DNA of 64,000 nt from Escherichia phage vB_EcoM_G50: the sequence record NC_054917.1; one strand, 5' to 3'. Below the pieces are notes generated by a model. The model worked only from the letters and a program-made list of their open reading frames with translations, was not told the origin of the DNA and did not search any database. How positions within the stretch are numbered: position 1 is the stretch's first letter; every line of letters begins with the position of its first letter. The translations under genes and the position numbers were made by a program. Positions 2,304 through 43,421 of this stretch are shown one piece after another.

Positions 2304-3319
2304 TGTGTTGCCTCTACATATAACTGATTTGCATATTGAATAAGTGCTTCACGGTCAGAATCAGTGATGTCTGGAATTGCATTAATGTATTCTTCCATCA
2401 ACGTCTGAAGAGATTGAACTTCAACTTCTTCACTTTCATCTGACTCGACAGAGTTATCAATTTTTGACACAACTCGTAATGAATGCACAACTTTTTCTAG
2501 TTCAGATTCGAACTTCGTTAGATTTTTGTCTACTTCAGTTACTATAACACGTACTGATAGATTTGTAAAATCTTTATAGTCAATTTTTCCTTTAAATGGA
2601 TAATGAATTCTACGATGCCAGGTAGTATTGTTTGGAATAAATTCCATTCGTTCTGTTTCTGTATCAAACATCCAGAACCCACGAGGGTCATTCTCGTCAC
2701 CTGCAGTTAGTGTCCATGGTGTCCCAATATATCTGACGTTAGCAGCCTCAGAAATAGTATGGAAGTGACCAGACCACACTTCTTTATAAGTCTTAAGGAA
2801 ATCAGGTTCAAGACCGTGAGATTTCATTCCTTTATAAAAATAAAATCCATTCAGTTCCCAGTGACCAACACAAAAAGAAGCAGATGAAGTTTTGATGTGT
2901 TCAAGAATTTCACCAGTATTTTCTTCGCACATCCAAGGAATCAAATCAATCAAACACCCGTCAAAATCTACCGTAGTAGGCTTATCATATACTTTAACAT
3001 TAGGATATTTAGCCAAAAGCTCAGTAGAGGCATTTGGAGTTAAAGTATTTTTAAAGTGCATATCATGGTTTCCTACAACAGTATGTAGGGTAATACCAGC
3101 ATCATCAAGCATTTGAACTATTTCACGAGCGAACTCCATAGTTTTATGCGTGATTGCTTTTCGCACATCAAAAATATCACCGTATTGAATCCATGTAGTA
3201 ATTCCATTTTTCTTAGAATATTCTATTGCTTGTTTAATTCCATCCAACTGAATAGATTGAACCCACTCATCATCAGCTTTAACGCCTAAATGCCAATCAC
3301 CTAAATTTAAAATTTTCAT
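2300..3319 (-). CDS. 47: Recombination endonuclease subunit gp47 (SbcD/Mre11-like phosphoesterase)
   Basis: 339 aa; calcineurin-like phosphoesterase motifs DWHLG and GNHD; adjacent to 46. Confidence 0.93.
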   Translation of the reverse strand: MKILNLGDWHLGVKADDEWVQSIQLDGIKQAIEYSKKNGITTWIQYGDIFDVRKAITHKTMEFAREIVQMLDDAGITLHTVVGNHDMHFKNTLTPNASTELLAKYPNVKVYDKPTTVDFDGCLIDLIPWMCEENTGEILEHIKTSSASFCVGHWELNGFYFYKGMKSHGLEPDFLKTYKEVWSGHFHTISEAANVRYIGTPWTLTAGDENDPRGFWMFDTETERMEFIPNNTTWHRRIHYPFKGKIDYKDFTNLSVRVIVTEVDKNLTKFESELEKVVHSLRVVSKIDNSVESDESEEVEVQSLQTLMEEYINAIPDITDSDREALIQYANQLYVEATQ

Positions 3320-3478
3320 ATATCAAGAACCGTCATTGAAATGCAAAATAAAATTATTGAAATAAATCCATCTGGAGTGCTAAAGAACCCAATCCAACAT
3401 GCTCTAGTGAATAGATAAAATGCAAGAAAAAGTATCACATATCCAAGAAATATCATTATATCAAACTCCGTATAAAGC

Positions 3479-3498
3479 TAAAGGGCCGAAGCCCTTTA
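3479..3498 (-). terminator. Stem-loop (GGGC-UUCG-GCCC tetraloop hairpin) at the 3' end of a-gt
   Basis: Inverted repeat aaagggc/gcccttt with 4-nt loop, overlapping the a-gt stop codon; modest U-rich tail on the minus strand. Confidence 0.4.
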
Positions 3499-4698
3499 TT
3501 TTGTAATAATGTCAAACTGTTCTTTAAAGCAGAAGCTTGAATCTTGATGCTGATACAAAAATTCATATGCTTTTTCTCGCTCACGGTCATAAAGAGCTCG
3601 GTCAGATGACAGTTCTTTAATACGTTCAAATGTTGATTCCATATCATTTTCATCAAACCAAATGATACCGCTATCATGCGAGGTCAAAGGAGTATTATCA
3701 ACACGGAATTTTAAATTTTCGCCAGTAGATTTCCAAAATACCGGAATTGTTCCACATGCACCAAGCTCGAGATGAGTATATTCTAAAGAACGTTGTAGAT
3801 ATTTTTTATCCAACTTACTCAACTGATAACCAAATCCGGATTTACTCATACGTTCAAGCATTTCGCTATTTACATAACGGTCAAGAATTTGCGTTGGCAA
3901 ATTAGGAGCAATTTTAATTTGGTCTACTTGATGAAGACGATAATATTCATATGGAATTCCCTTTTCTTTAATAGGAATGAACGCTGGAGAACGTTCCAGA
4001 CCTTCCATAATAGTACTTAGTCCTGCAGGTTTAAGATGTTTTTCGTGAAAATCAAACATCTGATAAAAACCTTTCCATGTAGTCGTACGACCAATCCAAC
4101 GGTTGATATTCATGTTAATTTCAGAAACATCTTTCCAGTAGGTTGATCGAACCTTCGCAATATCCATCGGAGGTTGAAAGTTATATACTGTCGGTGCTTC
4201 TTCAATATCATCAAACAGAGAAACAGTTTCTGGATACCATTCTTTCATCAGAACTTTATTAAAATCACCATTATCAGAATGGCTAAAAATAACATCAGCT
4301 CGACGAACAGTTTCTTCTAATCCCAAATTTCGACGCAAAGAAAGAGAAGAATGGTCATGCTGATAAACTATAACACGAACCGAAGGTTTAATGTTATCAA
4401 TAATTTTTTTATAGTTATTAATAGTGTCTTCTTCAACTGAAGTAGCAGGAACTGAATTGATAATTAGAATATCACAATCATTTACCAGCTTAAGTGTTTT
4501 ATCGTATTCTTTTGCCAATAAAACCGGAATTGAAAATGATTTATAATCATGTGCACAGTTACGAGTAAATGATTTATCTTTAGCATAAACCAAAGTTACT
4601 TCATGACCATTTTTAATAAACCAATCACGTTGCTCAAGAGAAAATTTAGTTACACCGCAACCTTCAAGACCTCGAGCCATAAAAATACATACTTTCAT
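3496..4698 (-). CDS. a-gt: DNA alpha-glucosyltransferase
   Basis: 400 aa, the length of T4 a-gt; N-terminus MKVCIFMARGLEGCGVTKF resembles T4 a-gt as recalled; position between 47 and 55. Confidence 0.85.
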   Translation of the reverse strand: MKVCIFMARGLEGCGVTKFSLEQRDWFIKNGHEVTLVYAKDKSFTRNCAHDYKSFSIPVLLAKEYDKTLKLVNDCDILIINSVPATSVEEDTINNYKKIIDNIKPSVRVIVYQHDHSSLSLRRNLGLEETVRRADVIFSHSDNGDFNKVLMKEWYPETVSLFDDIEEAPTVYNFQPPMDIAKVRSTYWKDVSEINMNINRWIGRTTTWKGFYQMFDFHEKHLKPAGLSTIMEGLERSPAFIPIKEKGIPYEYYRLHQVDQIKIAPNLPTQILDRYVNSEMLERMSKSGFGYQLSKLDKKYLQRSLEYTHLELGACGTIPVFWKSTGENLKFRVDNTPLTSHDSGIIWFDENDMESTFERIKELSSDRALYDREREKAYEFLYQHQDSSFCFKEQFDIITK

Positions 4699-4764
4699 TT
4701 AATATCCTCTTTGTTTTGGTTTATTTTACTAAAAATTTATAAAGCAATATAGGAGCCGAAGCTC

Positions 4765-6192: not shown

Positions 6193-6270
6193 TTTCACCT
6201 CTTAGCTCAATTCATAGATCTATTATATCATAATATTTGAAGATCTATCTTAAAGCATAGAGGATATCAG

Positions 6271-6540
6271 TTATCTAAGTAAACAGTATGCTTGGAATAC
6301 TTTTTCCATCATCTTTTTAAATTCATGAATATCTATATAATGACTAGTTAAATCAGCATGATATAAAAAGTCTAAAAACTTTTCATGTGTACTAACATAT
6401 TCACTTTCATTTAATTCAGAAACATGACTTTCCCAATATCCAACACCAGTTTTATTTGGGAAAAATGAAATTTTCATGTATTGGTCAACATAGAAAATGC
6501 CATAATTTTCAATAGTAATAGAAATATTAATAAATTTCAT
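6271..6540 (-). CDS. Hypothetical protein
   Basis: 89-aa ORF; 4-nt overlap with the upstream ORF. Confidence 0.5.
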   Translation of the reverse strand: MKFINISITIENYGIFYVDQYMKISFFPNKTGVGYWESHVSELNESEYVSTHEKFLDFLYHADLTSHYIDIHEFKKMMEKVFQAYCLLR

Positions 6541-8405: not shown

Positions 8406-8642
8406 CTATTCCTTACTAAGAGCAGCATTCAGCTTGTTAGTAATTTTATCCAGACGCTCATTGAACTCACTAGAAGATAAGCCCTTTTCTGGAGAAATTA
8501 AACTAATCACGAAAAATACAACAATAAAAGGAATAAGGAAAATAGCTCCAACTGCCATAAACAGAAAGAATGTTACAGTTGTAAGAAAATCAGCTAAACC
8601 TTTACGAAATTTATACATATTTACCCTTAATTGATTAACCAA
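8406..8642 (-). CDS. Small membrane protein
   Basis: 78 aa with one strongly hydrophobic segment (FFLFMAVGAIFLIPFIVVFFVISLI). Confidence 0.5.
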   Translation of the reverse strand: MVNQLRVNMYKFRKGLADFLTTVTFFLFMAVGAIFLIPFIVVFFVISLISPEKGLSSSEFNERLDKITNKLNAALSKE

Positions 8643-8732
8643 GCATTGATAAGCACTAAACTATACTGCGAATAAAATTCTGGACCAAAATGAAAAATCA
8701 TATCATTTATAGTATCCATAATATAATTCAAT

Positions 8733-9203
8733 TTAATCATGTTTCCACACCCCATCGGTATTTGACCAAAGTCGCTGATTATCTGATCCTCGCCACAGCT
8801 TTTTGGTCGGAAGATTTTTCTCATACTTCCCATCAATAATAACATCAACATATTTAAGCATTTCTAGTTGTTTAATATCTTCAAATTTATATCCTGTCCA
8901 CAACCAAATGCTTTTATTGGGATAAAGATTTTTTACTGTTTGAACAATGCAATGAACAACATCTCGGTTATCAGGATAGAGAGGGTCTCCTCCAGTTATA
9001 GTTAATCCTTCTATATAATCATTATTCAAACATTCAATTAATTGTTCTAGTGTTTCACCAGTGAATGGAACGCCATTTCTAGCGTTCCATGTTGATTTAT
9101 TATAACACCCTTCACATTTATGCAAACAACCTGTAACGAAAAGAACGACCCTGCATCCAGGGCCATTCACAAAATCGCAAGGATAAAATCTATCATAATT
9201 CAT
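8733..9203 (-). CDS. nrdG: Anaerobic ribonucleotide reductase activating protein (radical SAM)
   Basis: 156 aa; Cys cluster CLHKCEGCYN consistent with a radical-SAM activase; 4-nt overlap with nrdD. Confidence 0.9.
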   Translation of the reverse strand: MNYDRFYPCDFVNGPGCRVVLFVTGCLHKCEGCYNKSTWNARNGVPFTGETLEQLIECLNNDYIEGLTITGGDPLYPDNRDVVHCIVQTVKNLYPNKSIWLWTGYKFEDIKQLEMLKYVDVIIDGKYEKNLPTKKLWRGSDNQRLWSNTDGVWKHD

Positions 9204-11017
9204 TGGTGTTTAACCCTATGCATGATTTCTTTATTTTTGCCGAGATTAAATCCACGTTCGTTCGGATTTCCCAAATAACCACAAGTTCTTCTTATTGTGT
9301 TCATCTTTTTAGGATCAGTTTCTCCACAAATAGAACAAACAAACCCGTTTTCAGTAGGAGTCATTTCATGGGTACTTCCACACGTAAAACATTTATCTAC
9401 TGGCATGTTAACACCAAAATAATCTAAATGTTGTGCAGCATAATCCCATACAGCCTCAAGACCTTTTAGGTTATTTTTCATATCAGGAAGTTCAACATAA
9501 GAAATGTGACCGCCTGTCGCAATGAAATGATATGGGGCTTCGCGAGAAATCTTTTCAAACGGAGTAATATTTTCTTCTACTGAAACGTGGAAACTGTTAG
9601 TGTACCAGCCTTTATCAGTAACATCCTTTACACTTCCATATTTCTCAGTATCAAGTTTACAGAAGCGATAACAAAGGTTTTCAGCAGGTGTAGAATACAA
9701 GCTAAAAGCAAAACCAGTTCTTTCAGTCCACTGCTTAAGACGAGCATTCATTTTAGTTAAAATTTCCTGTCCAATATCACGACCGACAAGAATATTCAAT
9801 TCGTGAATACCAATATATCCTAAGGACACTGAACTTCTACCGTTTTTAAATAACTCAATTATATCATCATCGGGTTTAAGACGAACCCCGAATGCACCTT
9901 CTTGGTAAAGAATAGGAGCAACAGTAGCTTTAACTCCTTTTAATGAACTAATTCTACACATCAATGCTTCAAAACACAAATCCATTCGTTCATTGAACAA
10001 TTCGGCAAATTTCTGTTCATTGAACTGTGTTCCAATATAAGAATCTAATGCAATACGAGGAAGATTCAGTGTTACAACGCCAAGATTATTACGTCCATCA
10101 AGAATTTCATTACCAGTCGAATCTTTCCATACGCTCAAGAAACTACGACAACCCATTGGAGAAACAGGAATAGATGAACCTGTGATAGCTTTATTATTCT
10201 TAGCTGAAATAATATCAGGATACATTCTTTTACTTGCACACTCTAGAGCAAGCTGCTTAATATCATAGTTCGGATCGTCTTTATAAAGATTGACACCCTC
10301 TTCAACGAACATAACAAGCTTAGGAAAAATAGGAGTTATCCCATCACGACCAAGGCCTTTAATACGATTTTTCAGAATTGCTTTCTGAATCATTCGTTCA
10401 GTCCAGTCAGTTCCCGTGCCAAATGTAATTGTTACAAAAGGCGTTTGTCCGTTTGAACTAAAGAGAGTATTTACTTCATATTCATAAGCTTGGAATGCAT
10501 CGTATACGTCTTTTTCTGTTTTAGATTGGGCATAATTCAATGCATCTGCGATTTGCCATTTTTCCGCGTCCTCAATATGTTTTGCATAGGTGCGTTTAAC
10601 ATAAGGAGAAAGTACTTTATCTACATTCGCAAAAGTTGTTCCGCCATATTGATGAGAAGCAACCTGCGCAGTAATTTGTGCCATAATTGCAGTAGCAACG
10701 CCAATTGATTTAGGAGTTTCAATCTGTGCATTACCGAGCTTAAATCCGTTCTCAAGCATTCCTTTTAAATCTACTAAACAACAATTAGTAAATGGAAGAG
10801 CAGGGGAATAATCAATATCGTGGAAATGGATAATTCCGCTTTCATGCGCTTTCATAATAAAAGACGGGACCATATTTTTGGCAATGTGTTTAGACACAAT
10901 ACCAGCCATAAGGTCCCGTTGAGTTGGAAAAACACGAGAATCTTTATTAGCATTCTCGTTCAAAAGGTCTTTATTAGTTTTATGAATTAATCCTTCAATT
11001 TCTTTTTCAATTGTCAT
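9200..11017 (-). CDS. nrdD: Anaerobic ribonucleoside-triphosphate reductase (class III)
   Basis: 605 aa uninterrupted; C-terminal glycyl-radical motif RRTCGYLG and Cys-rich zinc-ribbon region. Confidence 0.95.
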   Translation of the reverse strand: MTIEKEIEGLIHKTNKDLLNENANKDSRVFPTQRDLMAGIVSKHIAKNMVPSFIMKAHESGIIHFHDIDYSPALPFTNCCLVDLKGMLENGFKLGNAQIETPKSIGVATAIMAQITAQVASHQYGGTTFANVDKVLSPYVKRTYAKHIEDAEKWQIADALNYAQSKTEKDVYDAFQAYEYEVNTLFSSNGQTPFVTITFGTGTDWTERMIQKAILKNRIKGLGRDGITPIFPKLVMFVEEGVNLYKDDPNYDIKQLALECASKRMYPDIISAKNNKAITGSSIPVSPMGCRSFLSVWKDSTGNEILDGRNNLGVVTLNLPRIALDSYIGTQFNEQKFAELFNERMDLCFEALMCRISSLKGVKATVAPILYQEGAFGVRLKPDDDIIELFKNGRSSVSLGYIGIHELNILVGRDIGQEILTKMNARLKQWTERTGFAFSLYSTPAENLCYRFCKLDTEKYGSVKDVTDKGWYTNSFHVSVEENITPFEKISREAPYHFIATGGHISYVELPDMKNNLKGLEAVWDYAAQHLDYFGVNMPVDKCFTCGSTHEMTPTENGFVCSICGETDPKKMNTIRRTCGYLGNPNERGFNLGKNKEIMHRVKHQ

Positions 11018-11487
11018 TTTAAACTCTTTCTAAGCTGCTTCTTAAATGAAGCTATTAATTGTGTTTTAGTGTCAGATTCATTATATTCAAATCCTCTTTG
11101 AAGCATCTCAGCCATCATTTCCTCTTTTCCTAAACGAGAAAATTCCTTTGATTTATCTCCAACGAAGTTAGGGTGAATATTATTTTGGGTGTAATCGGAT
11201 TTTAAATAAGTAAGTAAATTTTCTAACCATTCAAGATAATCAACGCCTTGTCCCTTTAAGCCGGAACGATTAAATTTGTGCTTCATTTGACCTTCCGCTG
11301 CATTGCAGAGATTACAGAGCAATCCACGTACCTTTCCTGCTTTTGGTCCATTTAATTCATGATCATGGTCAAGGTGATTAGCTTGAACATCATGATTTAG
11401 TTCTCGTTGGCAAATTAAGCATTTACCGTTTTGTGCATTATAAAATTTCTGTTTTTCTTCTTTATATAATTTGCCAGTCAATAACAT
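11014..11487 (-). CDS. 49: Endonuclease VII (Holliday-junction resolvase)
   Basis: 157 aa; zinc-binding region CLICQRELNHDVQANHLDHDHELNGPKAGKVRGLLCNLCN matches T4 endo VII as recalled; ATGA overlap with nrdD. Confidence 0.9.
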   Translation of the reverse strand: MLLTGKLYKEEKQKFYNAQNGKCLICQRELNHDVQANHLDHDHELNGPKAGKVRGLLCNLCNAAEGQMKHKFNRSGLKGQGVDYLEWLENLLTYLKSDYTQNNIHPNFVGDKSKEFSRLGKEEMMAEMLQRGFEYNESDTKTQLIASFKKQLRKSLK

Positions 11488-11529
11488 AATAAAACCCTTA
11501 CCTTAAATAGATAAGGGTATTTATTATTT

Positions 11530-11706
11530 TCAAGTATTGTAAAACATTCGATGCAATCGCTTATATTGTCGAATCATCTTTTTAGTAGGACGAGAATAAG
11601 TTCCTATACAAGTGGTCATATTAGGGTCAGTAGGACTTCCTTTAATAAAAAGTTTCCAAACCTTACCACCATTTAACTTTTCAGTATAAATTAATTCGGT
11701 TTTCAT
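11530..11706 (-). CDS. Hypothetical 58-aa protein (below the ORF-track cutoff)
   Basis: Manual translation MKTELIYTEKLNGGKVWKLFIKG...; start overlaps the upstream stop (TAATG). Confidence 0.3.
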   Translation of the reverse strand: MKTELIYTEKLNGGKVWKLFIKGSPTDPNMTTCIGTYSRPTKKMIRQYKRLHRMFYNT

Positions 11707-12170
11707 TAAAACGCTCGGTCAGAAAAAGAAATTTGAGTTTCAAGCCATTCAATATATTCTGCCGCGGCTTGCATTAAATTTCCTTCGTAATCATCAATAT
11801 CTTTTTTCAACGCCGATTTAGATAATGCATATGAAATGCGTTCACCCTGAAATCCAGCTTTAGGTTTATGAATAACTTGATCAATTCGTTCTACGACTTC
11901 TTCAATTTCGCCATTTTCTGCGGATTCAGTATTCCACAAGCACCAATATGTAATTGGCTTATCATAGATGTTAATAATCTTTCCATCAGAAAGTTCAATT
12001 TCAATAATTCCAGTATCAGGTTCTATATCATCTTCGCATTCTTTTGCAAGTTCACGAACTTTAAAGACAGTACCTGCACTAAGTTCCGGCCAGTAATTAC
12101 ACAGCCCTTTATCAGCACGATTAATTCTAAACCACTTATCTACTGCAATCATACCCCATCTCCATATCAA
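11706..12170 (-). CDS. Hypothetical protein (position of T4 pin / 49.x; identity unverified)
   Basis: 154-aa ORF downstream of gene 49 in gene order. Confidence 0.5.
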   Translation of the reverse strand: MIWRWGMIAVDKWFRINRADKGLCNYWPELSAGTVFKVRELAKECEDDIEPDTGIIEIELSDGKIINIYDKPITYWCLWNTESAENGEIEEVVERIDQVIHKPKAGFQGERISYALSKSALKKDIDDYEGNLMQAAAEYIEWLETQISFSDRAF

Positions 12171-12606: not shown

Positions 12607-12777
12607 TTAATTTCGCAATTTATTAAGTTCTTCATAATCAATCCAGGATTCTAGTCCTGATGGCAAATCAGATTCAATTTCCCAAAGAAGCTCTTCAATT
12701 TTCTGAAGACGATCTAATTCTTCGGCTGGAATAGTAACCATTGACGGAGTTCTTGATACACTAATATCGTAAATCAT
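12607..12777 (-). CDS. Hypothetical acidic protein
   Basis: Track ORF shortened to internal ATG (MIYDISVSR) to remove the overlap with the upstream gene. Confidence 0.4.
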   Translation of the reverse strand: MIYDISVSRTPSMVTIPAEELDRLQKIEELLWEIESDLPSGLESWIDYEELNKLRN

Positions 12778-12779
12778 AT

Positions 12780-12995
12780 TTACCCCAGTTTGACCATGCA
12801 ATCGCCATATTTCCATTTAGAAATAGACTTTTCACCGTTAGAATAATAAACTTCGAGTTTAGCACGATTATTTTTAATTTGAATAACCTTTGCTGTCATC
12901 AAAGTTCCATACCCGTAATAAACTGCAACCTCATCACCTACATATACCGCGCTTCCGCGGTAGTCATGGATATAATCAGTTCCTTCGAGCATCAT
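12780..12995 (-). CDS. Hypothetical protein
   Basis: 71-aa ORF; 4-nt overlap with nrdC. Confidence 0.5.
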   Translation of the reverse strand: MMLEGTDYIHDYRGSAVYVGDEVAVYYGYGTLMTAKVIQIKNNRAKLEVYYSNGEKSISKWKYGDCMVKLG

Positions 12996-20274: not shown

Positions 20275-20331
20275 TTTATTCTCCTTTGATTTGATAGGAC
20301 TACTATAACATAGTCCTATCAGTTTGTATAC

Positions 20332-20532
20332 TTATTTTGACATTTCTTCGATGTCACGACGATACCCGTCACGAACTTCACGAAGAGCTTCAAGGCCACA
20401 CATAGGCTCGATACCTGTAATGTGAACTTGATTAATCTGATACTCTACATCTTCTAACTGAGCGAAAACATAACGACGTTCAGCTGCACAACCAGATTTA
20501 GCTTTACCGAAACGTTTATTCAAAGTAGTCAT
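20332..20532 (-). CDS. Hypothetical protein
   Basis: 66-aa ORF downstream of the early promoter at 20571-20600. Confidence 0.5.
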   Translation of the reverse strand: MTTLNKRFGKAKSGCAAERRYVFAQLEDVEYQINQVHITGIEPMCGLEALREVRDGYRRDIEEMSK

Positions 20533-20570
20533 TTTGTATCTCCAATTTACTCATTTGTTTTGATAAATCT

Positions 20571-20600
20571 ATAGTATCAACAACTACAGACCATGTAAAC
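20571..20600 (-). promoter_or_regulatory. T4-type early promoter (-35 GTTTAC, 18 nt, -10 TACTAT)
   Basis: Minus strand GGTTTACatggtctgtagttgttgaTACTAT. Confidence 0.5.
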
Positions 20601-20650: not shown

Positions 20651-21664
20651 TCATTTATAATAACTTCGGTGGTTTTCAAGATAGACCTTCTCAAGGAAGT
20701 CATCCCAGAAACTCATGTCTACTGTTTTAGGCATACCGTTCTTAGAAGCTTCAGTAGATGCTGCTTCTACTTGATCGACCACATCTTCCAAAAACTCTTG
20801 AACTGTTTTAAATGGATGTTTACCCAACTTCACGTCGAGAATAAATGGAGCATCTTGAAGTGGATAGACTAAGTCACCAGTTTTGTAAATTTCCAATAGT
20901 TGGAGTCCACCACGACAAGCATGACTCAAAGCTTTCCAGTCAATACCTTCATTGGCTTCAGCCTTACGAGCACGTTCACCGTATTCAGCATCTAATTTGT
21001 TCAGTGACTGCTTAAGCTCAATAAGAGAAAGCGTTGTCTGATATTTACGACCCAACACTGTGTAAAACGTCTGTGGGCCTGTTTTCTCATGATTATGGAA
21101 CACCCATTCACAGAATTCGTTTTCTGGAAGACGATGCTTAATATCTTCAACTTTAGTACGACGCTGCTTAATGGAACCGTCTTCTTGGTAATCAACCCAT
21201 TGCTCAGGGATTTGATTAACTACTTTCAATACATCGCGTAATGCAGCCAAACGAGAACCCTTGACACCGTATTTAGAAGCTTGCTTGCGGACATATCCTA
21301 AATAGGATTTCATGTTAGTCGTATAAAAACGAGAACGGTTGTCTTGAATAAACTTCCACACATCAGGCAAATCAGATTTAACCACTAGTTCAGGTGGAGT
21401 ATGAAGCATATCCAATGCTACAGTTTCACCATCTGCTGCTAATTTAAAGAAATATTTAAGACTGTATAGTTCATGGTCAATATCATCTTTAGTGTTTTTA
21501 GATGATGTATTGTTAGTGTTTTTACTCATGTGCTCTTTGACATTTCCGATAAGAATATCGCGAGCAGGAGGAACAAAGATTTCTTTAAAATCTACATCAG
21601 ATTCTGGGGTAGAAGTTCCATAAAGATGACTACCAAAATAGCTTTTCATTACTGTTTTCATCAT
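20651..21664 (-). CDS. Putative Pol-beta-superfamily nucleotidyltransferase
   Basis: 337 aa; N-terminal GS-x10-DxD signature (FGSHLYGTSTPESDVDF) typical of minimal nucleotidyltransferase folds; remainder uncharacterised. Confidence 0.55.
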   Translation of the reverse strand: MMKTVMKSYFGSHLYGTSTPESDVDFKEIFVPPARDILIGNVKEHMSKNTNNTSSKNTKDDIDHELYSLKYFFKLAADGETVALDMLHTPPELVVKSDLPDVWKFIQDNRSRFYTTNMKSYLGYVRKQASKYGVKGSRLAALRDVLKVVNQIPEQWVDYQEDGSIKQRRTKVEDIKHRLPENEFCEWVFHNHEKTGPQTFYTVLGRKYQTTLSLIELKQSLNKLDAEYGERARKAEANEGIDWKALSHACRGGLQLLEIYKTGDLVYPLQDAPFILDVKLGKHPFKTVQEFLEDVVDQVEAASTEASKNGMPKTVDMSFWDDFLEKVYLENHRSYYK

Positions 21665-22122
21665 TCAGCCTTATATTCAATAACAGGACATACTTTAGCT
21701 TTACGAGCTTTTAAAAATTCGACGATAATCGATTTCTTGGGTTGAATAGGAGGTAAACCTTTATACGCTCTATCAATATTTTCTACGTGTAAAGCATAAT
21801 CCTTTTTCCATTTATAATCTTTATATTTTTCACGCAAATGTGCAGGAATAACAAATGAACCGATAATAAGTAAAACAACCAAAAGTGCAAGTATAAATGC
21901 TGATGGAATAAGAGTCCATAAACTACCAAAAATAAGCCATTTCTGCATGATTTCTGCGCAGATAATAGTTAGACCTGCGAGTATAGTACATCCGAAAAAA
22001 GAAACGAAAAATGTAGGAATAACAATAGACCAAAAATACGCGCACAGTGTCTTAGGTCGTTGCCATTCATCGTTAAACAATTTGAATAATTTATAGTGCC
22101 AAGAGTTTTCATTAATAATCAT
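21661..22122 (-). CDS. Integral membrane protein
   Basis: 153 aa with 3-4 hydrophobic helices; 4-nt overlap with the nucleotidyltransferase-like gene. Confidence 0.55.
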   Translation of the reverse strand: MIINENSWHYKLFKLFNDEWQRPKTLCAYFWSIVIPTFFVSFFGCTILAGLTIICAEIMQKWLIFGSLWTLIPSAFILALLVVLLIIGSFVIPAHLREKYKDYKWKKDYALHVENIDRAYKGLPPIQPKKSIIVEFLKARKAKVCPVIEYKAE

Positions 22123-22124
22123 AA

Positions 22125-22646
22125 TTATCCTTTCATTGAAGGTGTAACAGTTGTTAAATACTTAATCATAGCTTCAGCTTCTGATTTTGATAATGAAATT
22201 TCTCCATTGTTTTGACGAATAGAAATAAAATCCGGATGACGGTCACCACCAGCTTTTAAAACACACATATAAGTATCAACTTCATCTTCAATATTTGAAA
22301 TGATTGAAGCAGTTCCACATGAATGCGGTTTTTGATAAATCAATACAGCTTTTCTTCCACCGTTTGACTGTTCATAAACTTTTAACACATCAAACAAATC
22401 ACTTCTTTTATCAATAGCTAAAATGTTGTTTTCATCTTCAATGTTAAATCCTTCGGATACTTCATAAAGTGTCACCCATAAATCACCTATATCGATAGTA
22501 GCATTTTCCTTTCCATGACTTTCAAGAGCATGACAAATTTTCTTGATTTCGTCATAACTCATTTTAATAATATCATCTCCTTGACTAAGGAAGATGTCAT
22601 TTTTAAATTCAACACGAATTAAACCACTTTCACTTGAAATAAACAT
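22125..22646 (-). CDS. Hypothetical protein, paralog A of a tandem pair
   Basis: 173 aa; shares EGFNIEDEN and ...IRQNNGEISLSKSEAEAMIKYLTTVTPSM with the adjacent ORF. Confidence 0.55.
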   Translation of the reverse strand: MFISSESGLIRVEFKNDIFLSQGDDIIKMSYDEIKKICHALESHGKENATIDIGDLWVTLYEVSEGFNIEDENNILAIDKRSDLFDVLKVYEQSNGGRKAVLIYQKPHSCGTASIISNIEDEVDTYMCVLKAGGDRHPDFISIRQNNGEISLSKSEAEAMIKYLTTVTPSMKG

Positions 22647-22652
22647 ATTTCC

Positions 22653-23207
22653 TCACTTTGAAATCATAGTTGGAATAACAGAATCAAGATAAGTCTTTAG
22701 TGCAATAGCTTCGTCTTTGGTAAATGTGACAATATGTGCTCGAAAATCGTCAATTTGACGAATAGTTAAGACGTCTCCATCTTCATAGCATTTTGAAACA
22801 TTTAAAATAGTTTCATCATTATGATTACAGGAGTTAGTAATAATAGCATTGCAATTTTTAAGCCATTTTAAACTATGTTTTCTTTCATTAGAATAATAAA
22901 AATATTTAATCTTAGTTATAAAATTATCCCAATTGTTAATTGATAAGCATATTGACTCGCTTTCAATATTAAATCCTGGGCATAAAGAATAGAAATGAAT
23001 TTTATGCTCATCATTAATGCTTACAATTTTATCAGTATAAGGTTTTTCAATTTGGGTTAAATGAATAATTTCGCTAGGCGTAAAATATAGCATATCGTCT
23101 TCTTGCGTCAAACGATACATATTATTTACTTTTTCTATAGCCAATTCACCAAAAAGTGAACTAACTTCTAATACTAATCGTTTCATATTAATCCTTTTTA
23201 TTGGCAC
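22653..23207 (-). CDS. Hypothetical protein, paralog B of a tandem pair
   Basis: 184 aa; PGFNIESES and ...IRQIDDFRAHIVTFTKDEAIALKTYLDSVIPTM align with paralog A. Confidence 0.55.
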   Translation of the reverse strand: MPIKRINMKRLVLEVSSLFGELAIEKVNNMYRLTQEDDMLYFTPSEIIHLTQIEKPYTDKIVSINDEHKIHFYSLCPGFNIESESICLSINNWDNFITKIKYFYYSNERKHSLKWLKNCNAIITNSCNHNDETILNVSKCYEDGDVLTIRQIDDFRAHIVTFTKDEAIALKTYLDSVIPTMISK

Positions 23208-23466
23208 GAATTTGTTCTAAAATTTTAGAATATTCCTTTGTATCAGATTTACGTACAATTGATACACTATAAGGCATACTATCGGTGTCTTTTATAAAGC
23301 GTTCCAAATGACACTCTAACAAAATTTCTGGATTATAAATCGTGTACATCAAATTACCTGTTGCTCCACGATATTGGCAGATTTCTACTGATTGAACACC
23401 ATTCCATAATTTTGTTAAAACTAAATCACCTACTTCTAATTTAGGAAAGCCCATGTTATTCACCAA
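23188..23466 (-). CDS. Hypothetical protein
   Basis: 92-aa ORF. Confidence 0.5.
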   Translation of the reverse strand: MVNNMGFPKLEVGDLVLTKLWNGVQSVEICQYRGATGNLMYTIYNPEILLECHLERFIKDTDSMPYSVSIVRKSDTKEYSKILEQIRANKKD

Positions 23467-23641
23467 TTAAAGTTTCAATATAAGAATCAAGATTTACTTT
23501 AGCTTCTTCCATAAGAGTTTTGTATTTAATCTTGTTAGCATGTCCGGAGAAAGCTGATTCATCAATAATTGTTGATGTATGAACAGCTTTACTATACGTC
23601 TCAATTAATTCTCTTAATTTAAAAGCCTGCTCACTTGTCAT
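23456..23641 (-). CDS. Hypothetical protein
   Basis: 61-aa ORF; preceded by a 34-codon micro-ORF with TAATG stop/start overlap. Confidence 0.45.
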   Translation of the reverse strand: MTSEQAFKLRELIETYSKAVHTSTIIDESAFSGHANKIKYKTLMEEAKVNLDSYIETLIGE

Positions 23642-30571: not shown

Positions 30572-31045
30572 TTATTTGAACGATTTAACGTACTGAATAG
30601 AACCTTTACTATTCACGAAAGCGATTTTACCATTTTTATTATACATGGTAGCAGTACGCTGATAGCCATAAGTTTGCTTACCAGATTGATAACCAACTAA
30701 TGCAAAATTATCTTCACCCATTTTATTCTGTTTAGCGCGAATGCGTTCATGACCATGTGCCATAAGAACCTTAGCATCACCAGTTGCAATGGATCGACGA
30801 GTTTTTTCATCTTCAACTGTATTAACAAAGTCGTCAAATGAATCAAATTTAGCATGAGATTTATTATACAGTTTTCCATCTACTGCATAATTATATCCCT
30901 GTACATCCATCTCAACTTCTGTACCATCATCCAATACAGCAGTGATTTTCTGTCCTTTTTTAAATTTCAAAAGATCAGTAAAAGATTCAGCAATAATTTG
31001 AGAATTAATAGCTGCTTCAGTAATAAATTCTTGATATGTTTTCAT
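30572..31045 (-). CDS. Internal-protein-like head protein with capsid targeting sequence
   Basis: 157 aa; N-terminus MKTYQEFITEA is the conserved T4 internal-protein targeting sequence ending in a protease-type I-x-E site; ipII/ipIII position beside e. Confidence 0.7.
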   Translation of the reverse strand: MKTYQEFITEAAINSQIIAESFTDLLKFKKGQKITAVLDDGTEVEMDVQGYNYAVDGKLYNKSHAKFDSFDDFVNTVEDEKTRRSIATGDAKVLMAHGHERIRAKQNKMGEDNFALVGYQSGKQTYGYQRTATMYNKNGKIAFVNSKGSIQYVKSFK

Positions 31046-31061
31046 GTGTATCCTTTAATTT

Positions 31062-31379
31062 TTATTCTTTAGGGAAGTTTTTAGAATATGCATCATAAAG
31101 CTTATTTCCAATACGGCGGAAAACTCTAGCCGCAAAACGATTTTCTGGGTTTTTAATCATGATTTGCATCATATAAGTACCCGCGTCAGAAAGAGCTTCT
31201 TCATAGTACCCGTTAATTTCTTTAAGAGTCCTACGTTTACCACCAGGACCATCAACAGTGATTTTCCATTTACCTGTAGAAGTGCGACTTGGCGGCTCAA
31301 CTTGTTCAATCCAGATATAACCGCCTTCTACACGTTGTCCTTGGGCAGATTCTGCAATAAATTCTTTAAACGTTTTCAT
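31062..31379 (-). CDS. Internal-protein-like head protein with capsid targeting sequence
   Basis: 105 aa; N-terminus MKTFKEFIAES; immediately downstream of e. Confidence 0.7.
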   Translation of the reverse strand: MKTFKEFIAESAQGQRVEGGYIWIEQVEPPSRTSTGKWKITVDGPGGKRRTLKEINGYYEEALSDAGTYMMQIMIKNPENRFAARVFRRIGNKLYDAYSKNFPKE

Positions 31380-35610: not shown

Positions 35611-35636
35611 CAAAAAGCCCTATCATTTAGATAGGG
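35611..35636 (-). terminator. Intrinsic terminator after the first extra internal-protein-like gene
   Basis: Hairpin ccctatc-attta-gataggg followed by UUUUU on the minus strand, directly after the stop at 35645. Confidence 0.55.
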
Positions 35637-35644
35637 ATTTAAAA

Positions 35645-36208
35645 TTATTTATCTAGTTTAGTTATTATAGCTTCTACGGCAGCTTTTAGCTTAGATGCGG
35701 TGTTAATACGATTTTTAATTTCAGTATACGCATCGCCAAGAACATCAAGGCTATCAGAATAAACACTTACACTATTGCGTTCGCTATTTGAAATAGAACC
35801 TTTAGTTTTACGATCAAAATCGGTGTACACGTCTTGAAGATCACGCGCTGCCTTCTTTGCATCATCCAATGCATCAAGAGCTTTATTCAAAGCATTAACG
35901 TATTTTTTAGTGTCGAACATATTCTTAGAAATTTTAGCAGGTGCACGTTCAGGAGTAGCTAATACAGATTTAGGAACCTGAGCGCCAGATGCCAATTTCT
36001 TAGAAATTTTGAAAAACGCTTTATTGAATTTATTTTCTTGACTCATCGTAAAAGAACTATTATCGATGTTGTACATTTCAATAGCTTTAGCTTTCCACTT
36101 AAGAAAATCGCCGCGGTCTTTTGGGTCCAAGTGGAAAAATACTTTAGTAAGATCTGCTTCAGATGGTAATTTTGCTGCTTCGGTTAAAAATTCGGCATAG
36201 GTTTTCAT
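35645..36208 (-). CDS. Internal-protein-like protein with capsid targeting sequence (additional cassette)
   Basis: 187 aa; N-terminus MKTYAEFLTEA; Lys/Ala-rich; bounded by terminator hairpins. Confidence 0.65.
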   Translation of the reverse strand: MKTYAEFLTEAAKLPSEADLTKVFFHLDPKDRGDFLKWKAKAIEMYNIDNSSFTMSQENKFNKAFFKISKKLASGAQVPKSVLATPERAPAKISKNMFDTKKYVNALNKALDALDDAKKAARDLQDVYTDFDRKTKGSISNSERNSVSVYSDSLDVLGDAYTEIKNRINTASKLKAAVEAIITKLDK

Positions 36209-36296
36209 TTAAAATCCTTGAAATAATTTATCGGTTGGTTATTAATTATTTATTACTTTGTTATTATCCGTAACAGCATTCTCTATGTGATTCAAA

Positions 36297-36324
36297 CTAA
36301 AAACCCCAACCTTTCGGTCGGGGC
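36297..36324 (-). terminator. Intrinsic terminator, copy 1 of a repeated hairpin
   Basis: ccccaacc-tttc-ggtcgggg with a U-run on the minus strand; near-identical copy at 36855-36884. Confidence 0.6.
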
Positions 36325-36332
36325 TAAGAATG

Positions 36333-36806
36333 TTATTTGATTTGTTTAGCAGACCAAATGCGGTCTTTGATGATTTTTTGAATGTCTTCAACATACTCTA
36401 GGTCATGAGCATGTGGGTTATCTTTGAAACTATAAGCACGAGCTAGTTTTTGGCCTTCAGTTTTGATTACTAAAAGCTCTTTAAGGATAGCTTCATATTT
36501 AGCGATAATTCCTTTAACAATATTTTTTTCTTGTGCAGCTTTAGGATCTGCTTTAGGAGCAGGTTTACCCGAAGCCTTTGCAAAAGCAGCACCAGTAGCA
36601 ACTAAACTTTTCCAGGCCATACTAACCGCATTTCCTGTAAATCCTTCTGCTTTCATGTCGCGAGCAAACTGGAATCGTGATTCGTCAGAAGCATCTTTAT
36701 AGGAATATTTACCCGCTGCAATGGCTGCTTTTGCGACAGCTTGAATTTCGGTGCTAGATGCTTCATTTAACACCGCTTCATTTAAAAATTGAGCATATGA
36801 TTTCAT
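36333..36806 (-). CDS. Internal-protein-like protein with capsid targeting sequence (additional cassette)
   Basis: 157 aa; N-terminus MKSYAQFLNEA; late-promoter motif upstream. Confidence 0.65.
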   Translation of the reverse strand: MKSYAQFLNEAVLNEASSTEIQAVAKAAIAAGKYSYKDASDESRFQFARDMKAEGFTGNAVSMAWKSLVATGAAFAKASGKPAPKADPKAAQEKNIVKGIIAKYEAILKELLVIKTEGQKLARAYSFKDNPHAHDLEYVEDIQKIIKDRIWSAKQIK

Positions 36807-36846
36807 CTTATTTCCTGTTTTAATTCGTGGATTTAATATACTACTA

Positions 36847-36854
36847 TATTTATA
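36847..36854 (-). promoter_or_regulatory. T4 late promoter motif TATAAATA
   Basis: Exact TATAAATA on the minus strand about 40 nt upstream of the ATG at 36806. Confidence 0.5.
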
Positions 36855-37195: not shown

Positions 37196-37546
37196 TTAAT
37201 ATTCTTTTAAAGCATCAATCTGTTCACGACGTTTACGCCATAAATCAATTGCTTCATACGCAGATTCAGCATTTCGAATTGGACGGCATTTATATAAAGA
37301 CTTGTGATTTTGATATTGCGTAGATAACGGAATTTTATCTAAAAGGTCTTTACGTTCAAAGTATTCGTAACCATCTAAGCCAAATGAACGATTTTTGAGA
37401 AATTGCCAATGACCAAATTCGTTTTGAATATAAATATAATCCGCGTGTTGATAAAGTAAATTAATTTCACGAAATGAGATATGTTTTTCATATTCATTGA
37501 AGTAAAATGTTAAATCATGAACTACTAAATAAACATTACCTTTCAT
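37196..37546 (-). CDS. Hypothetical protein inside the tRNA/stable-RNA region
   Basis: 116-aa ORF; no GIY-YIG or HNH motifs, so not a segB-type homing endonuclease. Confidence 0.5.
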   Translation of the reverse strand: MKGNVYLVVHDLTFYFNEYEKHISFREINLLYQHADYIYIQNEFGHWQFLKNRSFGLDGYEYFERKDLLDKIPLSTQYQNHKSLYKCRPIRNAESAYEAIDLWRKRREQIDALKEY

Positions 37547-37564: not shown

Positions 37565-37640
37565 TGGTCGAGGCAGTAGGGATCGAACCTACGACCTAGG
37601 ACTTAGAAGGTCCTTGCTCTTCCTTCTGAGCTATGCCCCG
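37565..37640 (-). tRNA. tRNA-Arg (anticodon UCU)
   Basis: Hand-folded 76-nt cloverleaf; anticodon loop CUUCUAA; T-loop GGUUCGAUCC; encoded CCA. Confidence 0.8.
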
Positions 37641-37644
37641 TAAT

Positions 37645-37720
37645 TGGGGTGACCGATGGGAGTCGAACCCATGACTACGAGAATCACAATCTTGAGTTCT
37701 ACCAACTGAACTACGGCCAC
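37645..37720 (-). tRNA. tRNA-His (anticodon GUG), probable
   Basis: 76-nt cloverleaf; anticodon loop UUGUGAU; discriminator C73 as in His tRNAs; one A-C mismatch in the anticodon stem; no encoded G-1. Confidence 0.6.
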
Positions 37721-37814
37721 ATTAATACCTACTCCAACAATCAAGATGTCTTCACACGAAATTAAGAGAAGAGTGATCAGTTCAACCCCGATAATCGCGT
37801 CAAGTAGATATTAA

Positions 37815-37830
37815 TGTGACAACTGTCACA
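37815..37830. repeat. Short inverted repeat TGTGACA-ac-TGTCACA in the spacer between tRNAs
   Basis: 7-bp arms with a 2-nt spacer inside a 114-nt tRNA-free gap. Confidence 0.5.
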
Positions 37831-37834
37831 AATT

Positions 37835-37909
37835 TGGCGGACGTGATAGGATTCGAACCTATAACCAATCGCTTAACAGGCGATCGCTCTGCCATTGAGC
37901 TACACATCC
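37835..37909 (-). tRNA. tRNA-Asn (anticodon GUU)
   Basis: 75-nt cloverleaf; anticodon stem-loop AUCGC-CUGUUAA-GCGAU; T-loop GGUUCGAAUCC; encoded CCA. Confidence 0.75.
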
Positions 37910-37913
37910 AAAT

Positions 37914-38000
37914 TGGTGGGGAGTGATGGAGTCGAACCACCCGAGTCGCAATGACAATGGATTTACAGTCCACACCGCTACCTCTACGGGATAACTCCCC
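37914..38000 (-). tRNA. tRNA-Tyr (anticodon GUA), long variable arm
   Basis: 87 nt; anticodon stem-loop GUGGA-CUGUAAA-UCCAU; bacterial-type long variable arm; encoded CCA. Confidence 0.75.
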
Positions 38001-38013
38001 TTAATTCTTAATT

Positions 38014-38088
38014 TGGTGGCCCTGGGTGGAATTGAACCACCATCTGGCGATTATGAGTCGCTTGCTTGAACCTTCCAGCTACAGGGCC
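38014..38088 (-). tRNA. tRNA with CAU anticodon (Ile2-type or Met)
   Basis: 75 nt; anticodon loop CUCAUAA; the position corresponds to T4 tRNA-Ile. Confidence 0.75.
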
Positions 38089-38089
38089 T

Positions 38090-38165
38090 TGGTGCTGATT
38101 GACGGAATCGAACCGCCGACCTTCTCATTACAAGTGAGTTGCTCTACCTACTAAGCTAAATCAGC
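38090..38165 (-). tRNA. tRNA-Thr (anticodon UGU)
   Basis: 76 nt; anticodon loop CUUGUAA; T-loop GGUUCGAUUCC. Confidence 0.8.
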
Positions 38166-38170
38166 AAAAC

Positions 38171-38260
38171 TGGCGGAGGCGATAGGATTTGAACCTATGA
38201 GTCGCCGGAGCGACTGCCGGTTTTCAAGACCGGTGCATTAAACCACTCTGCCACGCCTCC
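38171..38260 (-). tRNA. tRNA-Ser (anticodon UGA), long variable arm
   Basis: 90 nt; anticodon stem-loop CCGGU-CUUGAAA-ACCGG; long variable arm. Confidence 0.85.
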
Positions 38261-38261
38261 A

Positions 38262-38336
38262 GTCTCCATACAAGGATTTGAACCTTGGACCTCCTGATCC
38301 CAAATCAGGCGCTCTACCAAACTGAGCTACACGGAG
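38262..38336 (-). tRNA. tRNA-Pro (anticodon UGG), CCA not encoded
   Basis: Acceptor stem CUCCGUG/UAUGGAG; anticodon loop UUUGGGA; 3' end lacks encoded CCA. Confidence 0.8.
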
Positions 38337-38346
38337 TAAATTAAAT

Positions 38347-38420
<74 letters not shown>

Positions 38421-38425
38421 AAATT

Positions 38426-38512
38426 TGGTGCGAGAAGTGGGACTCGAACCCACAAGGAAATCATTCCGCAGCATTTTAAGTGCTGTGCCTTTACCAATTT
38501 GACCATTCTCGC
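38426..38512 (-). tRNA. tRNA-Leu (anticodon UAA), long variable arm
   Basis: 87 nt; anticodon stem-loop CAGCA-CUUAAAA-UGCUG. Confidence 0.85.
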
Positions 38513-38513
38513 G

Positions 38514-38586
38514 CTGGGAATAAAGGACTCGAACCTTTGCATCCTGGAATCAAAATCCAGTGCCTTACCAACTTGGCTAATTCCCA
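38514..38586 (-). tRNA. tRNA-Gln (anticodon UUG), abuts tRNA-Leu
   Basis: 5' UGGGAAU acceptor; anticodon stem-loop CUGGA-UUUUGAU-UCCAG; 3' end is 1-2 nt from the Leu 5' end (dimeric precursor arrangement). Confidence 0.85.
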
Positions 38587-40000: not shown

Positions 40001-40697
<697 letters not shown>

Positions 40698-40698
<1 letters not shown>

Positions 40699-41411
40699 TA
40701 TAGTACCTTTAGTGTATTTTTAATTTTAGAAAAAAGTTCTTCAAGAGAACCATCGTTTGTAATTACTAAATCGCCATCACGAATTGGCAATCCAGCTTCT
40801 GTAATATGAGTATCATTGGATTTTTGACCAGGACGAACTACATGAATTACTGTAGCACCCATCGCCCTAGCCGCATCCATTTCATGATCTTGACGAGTAT
40901 CAGGAACGATATAATAATCATAACCTGAGTTAAATTTATCAAGATAATCTAAAGCAAATAATTTTACCCAATACATGCGGTCGAAGTTATTAACAATCAA
41001 ATCCGTACCTAGGGCTTGCATCAGACGACGGACTGACCATTGATCTTCAATATTATTTATAACGTCAGCAATCTTGTTAAATGCTACGAAATTAACTGCG
41101 TCATCAAAAACAAACACACCTTTAATTGGGCTTTTACTATTAAGATAGCAAAATGCTTGTTCCATAATCGTAATTACTTCTAATTTAGTCAGATTTAAAT
41201 TAGTCTCACGATCATAGTCAATTCCTTCAAACTCTTTACGAGTTAAGCAAGGATAGTCAGTGTTTGCTGCAAATACACCCCATGCATAAGCCAATGCATC
41301 CTTAATAGGACCAGCAAGTTGATATTTAACTGCAGAATAATTATTCATAATAAAATCTGCAGTAGTATCTTTTCCACTACGCTTTACACCACTTAAAAAG
41401 ATTAGTTTCAT
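40698..41411 (-). CDS. 1: Deoxynucleoside monophosphate kinase gp1
   Basis: 237 aa; P-loop GVKRSGKDT; position between 57A and 3. Confidence 0.9.
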
Positions 41412-41460
41412 ATGTTTCTCCTCAAATTTAGTTAAGATTATAACACATGAAACTGAAGCA

Positions 41461-41991
41461 TTAAACTTCTGCTATAATTTTGCCATCTTTTTCTACTTGA
41501 AAATACGTATAAGGAATCGTTGCTGTGCATACTAAGGCTGGGTCTGAATCTTCCGTGTAGCTAAATTCTACTTCAGACAGGTCAGAAACCCAAGGCTTAT
41601 AAAAATTTATTGACATCACGATTTCAGTTTTACTATTATCTAAAATGTAAAGCGTAATGTATTCAGGACCTGTTTTTTGGGCAGTATTTTCGCCTGTAAG
41701 ATAGTTACTAGTTCCTAGCATCCATTCATACATTCCTATCCACGACTTAAGCTCTTCATCAACTATAAATCTCACGATGAGTGGGTCGTACTCAAATGTA
41801 ACACCTGGACGTTGTGCTCGGCCTAGTCCAAACGGCCCAGTCACGGTATCAGTAACAGGTATCCTAATTCCTGGAATAGGAACTGACTGAGCATTTAAAG
41901 TAAAAGCAGATGTAGTATTACTATGCGGTATTGATACTACAAAGTTAGTTGTATTTGCTTGGTTAAAAATTTGTTGTAGTGCTTGCGACAT
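41461..41991 (-). CDS. 3: Tail completion / sheath stabiliser gp3
   Basis: 176 aa (the size of T4 gp3); gene order 1-3-2-4. Confidence 0.8.
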   Translation of the reverse strand: MSQALQQIFNQANTTNFVVSIPHSNTTSAFTLNAQSVPIPGIRIPVTDTVTGPFGLGRAQRPGVTFEYDPLIVRFIVDEELKSWIGMYEWMLGTSNYLTGENTAQKTGPEYITLYILDNSKTEIVMSINFYKPWVSDLSEVEFSYTEDSDPALVCTATIPYTYFQVEKDGKIIAEV

Positions 41992-42097
41992 ATATTCCTC
42001 ATAATGCTTTATAAGTGTTGGTGGTATAATGGGTCTAAGTCCCTTCTATTCAATTCCAATTAGAACAAACAATAGAAAAGAATGGAAGATAATAGAA

Positions 42098-42922
42098 TTA
42101 GATATTTGACCAGACTTTGTTTGCAGAGAAACGTTTTCCTTTTGAAACGAACTGCTGAAGTGGCATTAATACAACGTTCGCCCAGTCTTTCGGGGCGATT
42201 TCAACAAGGCTACCCATGATATTACCAGGTATATATGCCTTAATCATTTGGTCTGCACCCCTAAATCCTTTCACTTGACTCCAATCAATTTTTAATTTCG
42301 TTTTATTAGTAATAGTAGGTGTATTTGAATATTGCTTTAAAAGCTCTTCTAGAAATTGCTGACGAGCTTTAGGTGGAATATAGTGCAAGTTCAATCCGTA
42401 CATTAAATTATGTTTACCTAAACCAAGGTAAATTATCAAAGGAAATTTATCCCAGTAAGGAAGAGTTTCCTTGTGTTTAGCATCATAAGCAAAAGCATAT
42501 ATTCGTCCCGGCTGCGGGCGAACAACTTTATGTCCTTTTACTTGCTTAATAGTTTCAGCAAACCACTTTCTGGTTTTATTATTAATTGCTGCACCTTCAT
42601 TACGAATTTTATCACGCAATGTTTGTCTGAATGAATTTATCATAAGCAGTTGTCTTTCTTGCTTATTGAGTTTATTCATTGGTTTTGATTCAAGCTTTTG
42701 AATCTTTTCAGCCGTTTTAATTCCTGAAGCATATTTTGACATTGCCGAAGTAAACGTAGAGTATTTGATTCCTCTTTCTTCAGCAAATTGCTTTCCTGTC
42801 ATTCCTTTTGCTTTGGCCTTTCTGTATTCAAGACCTATCTGAATCCATTTCTTTTCGTTTAATGATTGCTTAACCTTTGGAACTTGGGGAGTGCTTTCAT
42901 TAATTATTTGAAAAATAGCCAT
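42098..42922 (-). CDS. 2: DNA end-protector protein gp2
   Basis: 274 aa (the size of T4 gp2); basic; gene order. Confidence 0.8.
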
Positions 42923-43374: not shown

Positions 43375-43385
43375 TGGATTCTCCT

Positions 43386-43393
43386 TATAAATA
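43386..43393 (+). promoter_or_regulatory. T4 late promoter TATAAATA for gene 53
   Basis: Exact TATAAATA 29 nt upstream of the gene 53 ATG. Confidence 0.65.
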
Positions 43394-43400
43394 GATAATA

Positions 43401-43408
43401 TATTTATA
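43401..43408 (-). promoter_or_regulatory. T4 late promoter TATAAATA for gene 4 (divergent)
   Basis: Exact TATAAATA on the minus strand 27 nt upstream of the gene 4 ATG. Confidence 0.65.
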
Positions 43409-43421
43409 AACAGGAGGGCCC

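Follow-up and report, generated by a model that had tools for sequence, protein, structure and literature searches.

A continuous nrdD gene and vacant intron and mobC sites in the T4-like Escherichia phage vB_EcoM_G50

In phage T4 the gene for the large subunit of the anaerobic ribonucleotide reductase, nrdD, is split by an intron and is followed, at its junction with nrdG, by the homing endonuclease gene mobC. The same cluster in Escherichia phage vB_EcoM_G50 raises the question of whether either element is present there, in whole or in remnant form, and whether its presence or absence is unusual among relatives of T4. We addressed this question in a stretch of 64,000 nucleotides from sequence record NC_054917.1, hereafter the window, by comparison with T4, with the intron-less phage T2 and with the available phage records.

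The locus consists of three genes on the minus strand, each identified as an open reading frame (ORF) with Pfam support. nrdG (8733..9203), which also aligns to T4 nrdG, encodes the 156-residue radical-SAM activase of anaerobic ribonucleotide reductase; nrdD (9200..11017), assigned in addition by alignment to T4 and to PDB 1H78, encodes the 605-residue large subunit of the class III (anaerobic) ribonucleoside-triphosphate reductase; and gene 49 (11014..11487) encodes recombination endonuclease VII, a protein of 157 residues. The original prediction that nrdD is one continuous ORF of 605 residues agrees with the ORF analysis, coordinates included, and with an alignment in which 600 of the 605 residues are identical to the spliced T4 NrdD and five are changed. 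The two predicted junctions are also as described, each being a 4-nt ATGA overlap. At 9200-9203 the overlap joins the nrdG start to the nrdD stop (coding strand, ...CACCAATGAATTATG...) and at 11014-11017 it joins the nrdD start to the gene 49 stop (...TTTAAAATGACAATT...). Because the genes overlap, there is no spare DNA in the cluster.

The NrdD translation matches the Pfam family NRDD (PF13597) over profile positions 1-562 of 562 (E=1.8e-171) and the Gly_radical family over residues 481-586 (E=1.2e-25), with the glycine of the RxCGY signature in place. Its residues 1-605 align to residues 1-605 of PDB 1H78, the chain of the T4 NrdD crystal structure, with a score of 1399 bits. The glycyl-radical motif, RRTCGYLG, comprises residues 576-583 and is encoded at 9269..9292 on the minus strand (read from the translation; positions calculated from the start of the ORF). 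The protein had been expected to end in this motif; the motif is there, but not at the very end, as its Gly580 lies 25 residues short of the C-terminus. The gene encodes a complete class III ribonucleotide reductase with a Gly580 radical site and a C-terminal Cys4 zinc ribbon, and its near-identity to T4 NrdD suggests that the enzyme would reduce NTPs under anaerobiosis. The nrdG product is matched by the Pfam families Fer4_12 (E=1.4e-48) and Radical_SAM (E=6e-7), and its CxxxCxxC cluster motif reads CLHKCEGC. Gene 49 carries both Endonuclease_7 (PF02945, E=7e-22) and the T4-type dimerisation domain Endonuc-dimeris (PF09124, E=1.5e-33). Its product belongs with the Holliday-junction resolvases and not with the homing endonucleases.

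The intron site of T4 can be located exactly in the window. The nrdD gene spans 2851 nt in T4 and 1818 nt here, a difference of 1033 nt that corresponds to the intron. A scan of all splice points, together with the T4 alignment, places the gap between coding nucleotides 538 and 539, at window positions 10480|10479 (10479..10480, minus strand) and within the codon of Tyr180. The boundaries of the BLAST blocks fall at the same place (window 10479/10482 versus T4 44814/45850). Across this point the gene is continuous and, with neither an indel nor an internal stop codon, has the length of the spliced T4 nrdD. An Rfam search of the whole 64-kb window at the gathering score returned only 11 tRNAs and no group I intron (RF00028). 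A more permissive search of 8500-11700 (E<=10) also returned no intron. Its sole match, an rnk_leader at 20 bits versus a gathering score of 50, was taken as chance. The same permissive scan of the T4 locus detected the nrdD intron as RF00028 with 105.3 bits (E=2e-27), and because this control was so strongly positive, the scan would have detected an intron in the window.

The original prediction assigned I-TevIII to nrdD of T4, which is incorrect. In the T4 record (NC_000866.4) nrdG lies at 42446-42916, mobC at 42906-43538, nrdD at 43535-46385 in two joined pieces, and gene 49 at 46382-46855. I-TevII is annotated at 44836-45612, a position inside nrdD, and the T4 nrdD endonuclease is therefore I-TevII. 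The review of Edgell, Gibb and Belfort (Table 1, PMC2988022) likewise assigns I-TevII, a GIY-YIG enzyme, to the nrdD intron and I-TevIII to the nrdB intron.

The mobC site is equally empty. BLAST and the T4 alignment place it at the junction of the nrdD stop and the nrdG start (9183..9203, minus strand), where T4 carries 622 extra bp with the free-standing HNH gene mobC that are missing from the window at 9203. The N-terminus of T4 MobC, MNYDRIY, resembles the start of NrdG; in the window the nrdG ATG simply overlaps the nrdD stop. When 8600-11600 was searched with Pfam in all six frames (E<=1), no HNH, GIY-YIG or LAGLIDADG domain matched, and the hits were confined to NrdG, NrdD, EndoVII and the margin of a DUF7279 ORF; no intron or endonuclease was found anywhere within 9200-11017. 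The claim that the cluster has no room for, and no trace of, an intron or mobC is borne out by the ORF overlaps and by the six-frame Pfam and permissive Rfam searches. That a degenerate intron or endonuclease remnant was nevertheless overlooked is vanishingly improbable. We found no evidence that counts for it; nrdD has the spliced T4 length of 1818 nt without indels, and both searches were negative, the Rfam search against a strong T4 control and the Pfam search at a lenient threshold. The identity in length and the gene overlaps effectively refute such a reading.

We then asked how far this absence extends along the window. By BLAST, positions 1-64000 are colinear with T4 33129-98525, a stretch of 65,397 bp, so that the window falls about 1.4 kb short of its T4 counterpart; the predicted shortfall of about 6 kb was too large by roughly fourfold. 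Six homing endonuclease genes lie in this stretch of T4 (mobB, mobC, I-TevII, mobD, segB and segC), and all are in T4 segments that do not align to the window. The absence of segB and mobD, as predicted, is seen both in these unaligned segments and in the lack of any homologue in the window, and the broader claim of a region largely free of selfish endonucleases extends to all six genes, mobB and segC being additional to the four originally named. Three of the T4-only segments have no counterpart in the window, namely those of mobC (622 bp), the nrdD intron (1033 bp) and segC with 5.3 (about 560 bp). The 861 bp with mobB are replaced by 24 bp, the 808 bp with mobD by 962 bp of different sequence, and the 845 bp with segB by 872 bp, again of different sequence. 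Taken together, the endonuclease-linked segments account for a net difference of about 2.9 kb. The remaining differences amount to a net gain of about 1.5 kb for the window, made up of about 2.55 kb present only in the window versus about 1.1 kb of further sequence present only in T4. The main pieces of window-only DNA lie at 6266-6525 (about 260 bp), 11578-11714 (137 bp), 20285-20593 (about 310 bp), 23185-23629 (about 445 bp) and 35637-36851 (about 1.2 kb).

Searches of the whole window with phmmer --max and tblastn, using as queries the six T4 endonucleases of this stretch (MobB, MobC, MobD, SegB, SegC and I-TevII) and not the other nine of T4, gave nothing below E=0.01. A tblastn match to mobC at 3005-3163 (E=0.026) was taken as chance, the DNA there being colinear with the T4 gene 46/47 region. 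Every ORF of the segments that do not correspond to T4 was compared with Pfam and PHROGs, and none matched an HNH, GIY-YIG or LAGLIDADG family; the matches comprised DUF families, a membrane protein, a y05I-like paralogue, a phage tudor domain and internal-protein-like ORFs. Two of these segments were considered as possible sites of a hidden endonuclease and rejected. The sequence that stands where T4 has mobD (21665-22628) encodes the membrane protein and the y05I-like paralogue, and in the 1.2-kb insert at 35636-36852 there are two ORFs whose N-termini resemble those of internal proteins. In the T4-colinear stretches the absence of endonucleases was judged by synteny with non-endonuclease genes of T4 and not by an HMM search of each ORF. 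By these measures the 64-kb window appears to contain no homing endonuclease gene, neither any of the six of T4 nor a substitute. This statement covers the visible 64 kb; elsewhere the genome may still have endonuclease genes, for example at td, nrdB or the positions of segA, segD-G, mobA or mobE.

A census of 50,697 phage records was used to ask how common the vacant arrangement is. About 686 of the records contain the locus region at >=90% identity. Twenty-five records, among them many isolates of T4, have a T4-type nrdD intron, 69 have any full-length nrdD-type intron, and 32 have mobC. The unit of the census is the database record, so that numerous laboratory isolates of T4 as well as redundant entries are counted. 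About 90% or more of the sequenced Tequatrovirus relatives have neither the intron nor mobC. The original prediction implied that a genome without these elements is an oddity. The census and the literature reverse this: endonuclease-free is the norm among the relatives of T4, and it is T4 that is the outlier (PMC2988022).

These data are almost certainly explained by a Tequatrovirus, one of the T4-like phages of Escherichia coli and Shigella, that carries the common, unoccupied gene 49-nrdD-nrdG early operon, with both T4 insertion sites vacant, and we found no evidence that counts against this explanation. ATGA stop/start overlaps typically serve to couple translation, and those described here would allow gene 49, nrdD and nrdG to be translated in a coupled manner from a single early transcript. 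From the near-identity to T4 and from what is established for class III reductases, NrdG, with S-adenosylmethionine and a 4Fe-4S cluster, would generate the Gly580 radical on NrdD, and the radical-bearing NrdD would reduce ribonucleoside triphosphates anaerobically. The host genes lack nothing, and the 1033 and 622 bp present in T4 are surplus mobile DNA.

The same vacant sites could also have arisen by secondary loss, in which an ancestor had both the nrdD intron and mobC and lost them by precise removal, for example through recombination during co-infection with a phage that lacked the intron. Cycles of gain and loss are expected of homing elements, and two phages with 96-97% identity to the window have an occupied site, 236Ecol005PP with an nrdD intron and Ec_MI-02 with its mobC site taken up by an HNH gene; the lineage has therefore been exposed to such elements. 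Occupied sites are nevertheless confined to a small minority of relatives, and no scar is visible, since the exon sequence at the intron site is that of the intron-less T2 and nrdD and nrdG meet in a clean ATGA overlap. A precise loss and a state of never having been invaded are indistinguishable in these data. On balance, we regard secondary loss as unlikely.

The immediate surroundings of the intron site suggest a further possibility. The 70 nt from -30 to +40 (10440..10509, minus strand), presumably a vacant I-TevII homing site, were compared with T2 and with intron-deleted T4. They are identical to T2 at 70/70 positions and differ from intron-deleted T4 at nine, all synonymous. Of the differences from T4 across nrdD, these 70 nt hold 9 of the 97 between the window and T4 and 9 of the 44 between T2 and T4. 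I-TevII cuts 13-15 nt downstream of the intron insertion site, and several of the differences lie near the cut position. It is conceivable that these substitutions block cleavage by I-TevII and that homing into this site fails for that reason. Against this stand the identity of the 70 nt to T2 and the T4 x T2 crosses in which, as Quirk et al. reportedly found in 1989, the nrdD intron was inherited at high frequency with T2 as the recipient. Enzymes of the I-TevII type are, moreover, tolerant of many substitutions, and an immune site is in our judgement very unlikely. Because its sequence is identical to the T2 site, the empty site is instead probably susceptible to I-TevII homing. In a related form of the idea, the synonymous cluster shared with T2 would be an anti-homing exon haplotype that is kept in intron-less Tequatroviruses by lowered I-TevII cleavage. 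If true, the site would be a natural anti-homing allele instead of a neutral vacant site; we consider this highly doubtful. The differences can equally well be placed on the T4 side, as an exon haplotype that was co-converted with the intron, and co-conversion of exon flanks along with the intron has been described (PMC2988022). The cluster is more simply read as such T4-type flanks.

Under the preferred explanation, an unoccupied operon of the common type, the phage has a standard and presumably functional anaerobic ribonucleotide reductase operon. The result accords with the literature, in which T4 is regarded as exceptionally well stocked with homing elements. It also has two practical consequences: the phage would be a natural recipient for experiments on intron and endonuclease homing, and the split nrdD model of T4 is unsuitable for annotating nrdD here. 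Beyond correct annotation its significance is small, as the arrangement is already known and is typical of the genus. Work dating back to the late 1980s already showed that T-even phages vary in which of the three introns they carry (refs 11-13 of PMC2988022).

The closest relatives of the locus share its organization. Three of them, all Tequatrovirus, stand out: Shigella phage ESh33, with 98.7% identity to the window over 4.5 kb, and Escherichia phages SholemSchwarzbard and KIT03, with about 98%. The window is identical to none among the matches listed. In these three phages the 4.5-kb region can be aligned without a break, has nrdH, nrdG, nrdD, endonuclease VII and pin annotated, and differs from the window by 1-2% point divergence. 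The two phages with occupied sites have a backbone 96-97% identical to the window and carry their insertions at the T4 positions. In Ec_MI-02 the nrdD/nrdG junction, the mobC position, is occupied by a different HNH gene of 840 nt that is absent from the window; the encoded protein of 279 residues resembles MobD (31% identity) more closely than MobC. Elsewhere, SegH and Hef are said by Sandegren et al. (2005) to stand in place of mobC and mobE. In 236Ecol005PP a 1046-nt nrdD intron, likewise absent from the window, occupies the T4 position, and its identity to the intron of T4 is only about 66%.

T4 itself (NC_000866.4, 42446-46855) shares the gene order and strand of the window, and its gene 49/nrdD ATGA junction is identical. 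It differs from the window in having a group IA intron of 1033 nt, encoding I-TevII, after nrdD coding nucleotide 538, and in having the 622-bp insert with the HNH gene mobC between nrdD and nrdG. The annotation of the T2 record (AP018813.1) is mislabelled in this region; the ORFs nevertheless correspond. T2 (40366-43120) has ORFs of 471, 1818 and 474 nt, as in the window, shares the 4-nt overlaps and, like the window, has neither the intron nor mobC. Its nrdD is 95.8% identical in nucleotide sequence to that of the window, from which it differs only by scattered point differences.

At the mobB position the window retains only an empty site (4690-4713), with 861 bp of T4 sequence missing between a-gt and a-gt.2, and a second empty site (46249-46254) marks the position of segC together with gene 5.3, where about 560 bp are missing between 5.1 and 5.4. 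The mobB and segC sites were not named in the original prediction. The mobD position (21661-22646) encodes two other proteins, a predicted membrane protein of 153 aa (phrog_944) and a y05I-like protein of 173 aa, the latter being a paralogue of the adjoining mobD.1 homologue (22653-23207). The segB position is occupied by genes for tRNA-His, tRNA-Asn and tRNA-Tyr (37645-38000), flanked by tRNA-Arg and by a tRNA with a CAT anticodon that is annotated as Ile in T4. The window harbors 11 tRNA genes in all (37565-38586) compared to eight in T4, and the cluster is preceded by an ORF of 116 aa (37196-37546; phrog_3355, function unknown).

Further differences from T4 were found in regions that encode other small proteins. 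The interval from gene 49 to pin contains a 58 aa ORF (11530-11706; DUF7279, E=4e-17); it is absent from T4 but present in close relatives, where it is annotated as hypothetical. In place of T4 gene 49.3 there are two small ORFs (12607-12995). The first of these (12607-12816) gave E=1.6e-39 against phrog_3402, 'antitoxin from a toxin-antitoxin system', and also shows a weak match, below the cut-off, to the T7 gp5.9 RecBCD-inhibitor family (E=5e-4), while the second (12780-12995) belongs to DUF7205. The 1440 bp of T4 that contain denV, which encodes endonuclease V, ipII and ipIII (T4 64943-66382) are replaced by 774 bp (30572-31347) with two ORFs that differ from all three T4 genes. The encoded proteins, of 157 aa (DUF7412) and 105 aa, begin with MKTYQEFITEA and MKTFKEFIAES, respectively, similar to the N-terminus of T4 internal proteins. 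A tblastn search found no match to denV anywhere in the 64-kb window; absence of the v gene is a known feature of T2-type phages. Relative to T4, there is also a 1.2-kb insertion (35636-36852) containing ORFs of 187 aa (35645-36208) and 157 aa (36333-36806), neither of which gave a significant Pfam family. Their starts, MKTYAEFLTEA and MKSYAQFLNEA, also resemble the capsid-targeting leaders of internal proteins.

The exon sequence around the empty nrdD intron site is a focus of divergence from T4. The 70 nt surrounding the site (10440-10509) contain 9 of the 44 nrdD differences between T2 and T4 and 9 of the 97 between the window and T4, and every difference from T4 in this stretch is synonymous. 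Here T2 is identical to the window, yet its nrdD otherwise resembles that of T4 (97.6% identity) more than that of the window (95.8%). The same insertion site is used by a second type of intron. In Escherichia phage 236Ecol005PP a 1046-nt intron (2782-3827 of the genome region L005) is located exactly at the T4 nrdD position but shares only about 66% identity with the T4 intron, and the annotation splits its I-TevII-like ORF into two parts. Since only 25 of the 69 records with a full-length nrdD-type intron carry the T4 type, the remaining records appear to contain this second type.

The nrdD/nrdG junction is occupied in a close relative of the window, Escherichia phage Ec_MI-02 (96.4% identity), by an HNH gene encoding 279 aa (1195-2034 of the genome region L004). 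The protein shows 31% identity to mobD and is less similar to mobC. Codons 1-13 of the gene are those of nrdG (MNYDRFYPCDFVN), and its end, ...WKYINEL, overlaps a second nrdG start. T4 mobC (T4 42906-43538) is similarly built, starting with MNYDRIY and ending with ...WKYKDEL. An MNY..(I/V)Y start is also found in mobB and mobD, and insertion at the nrdD/nrdG hot spot may therefore have been guided by the likeness to the start of NrdG.
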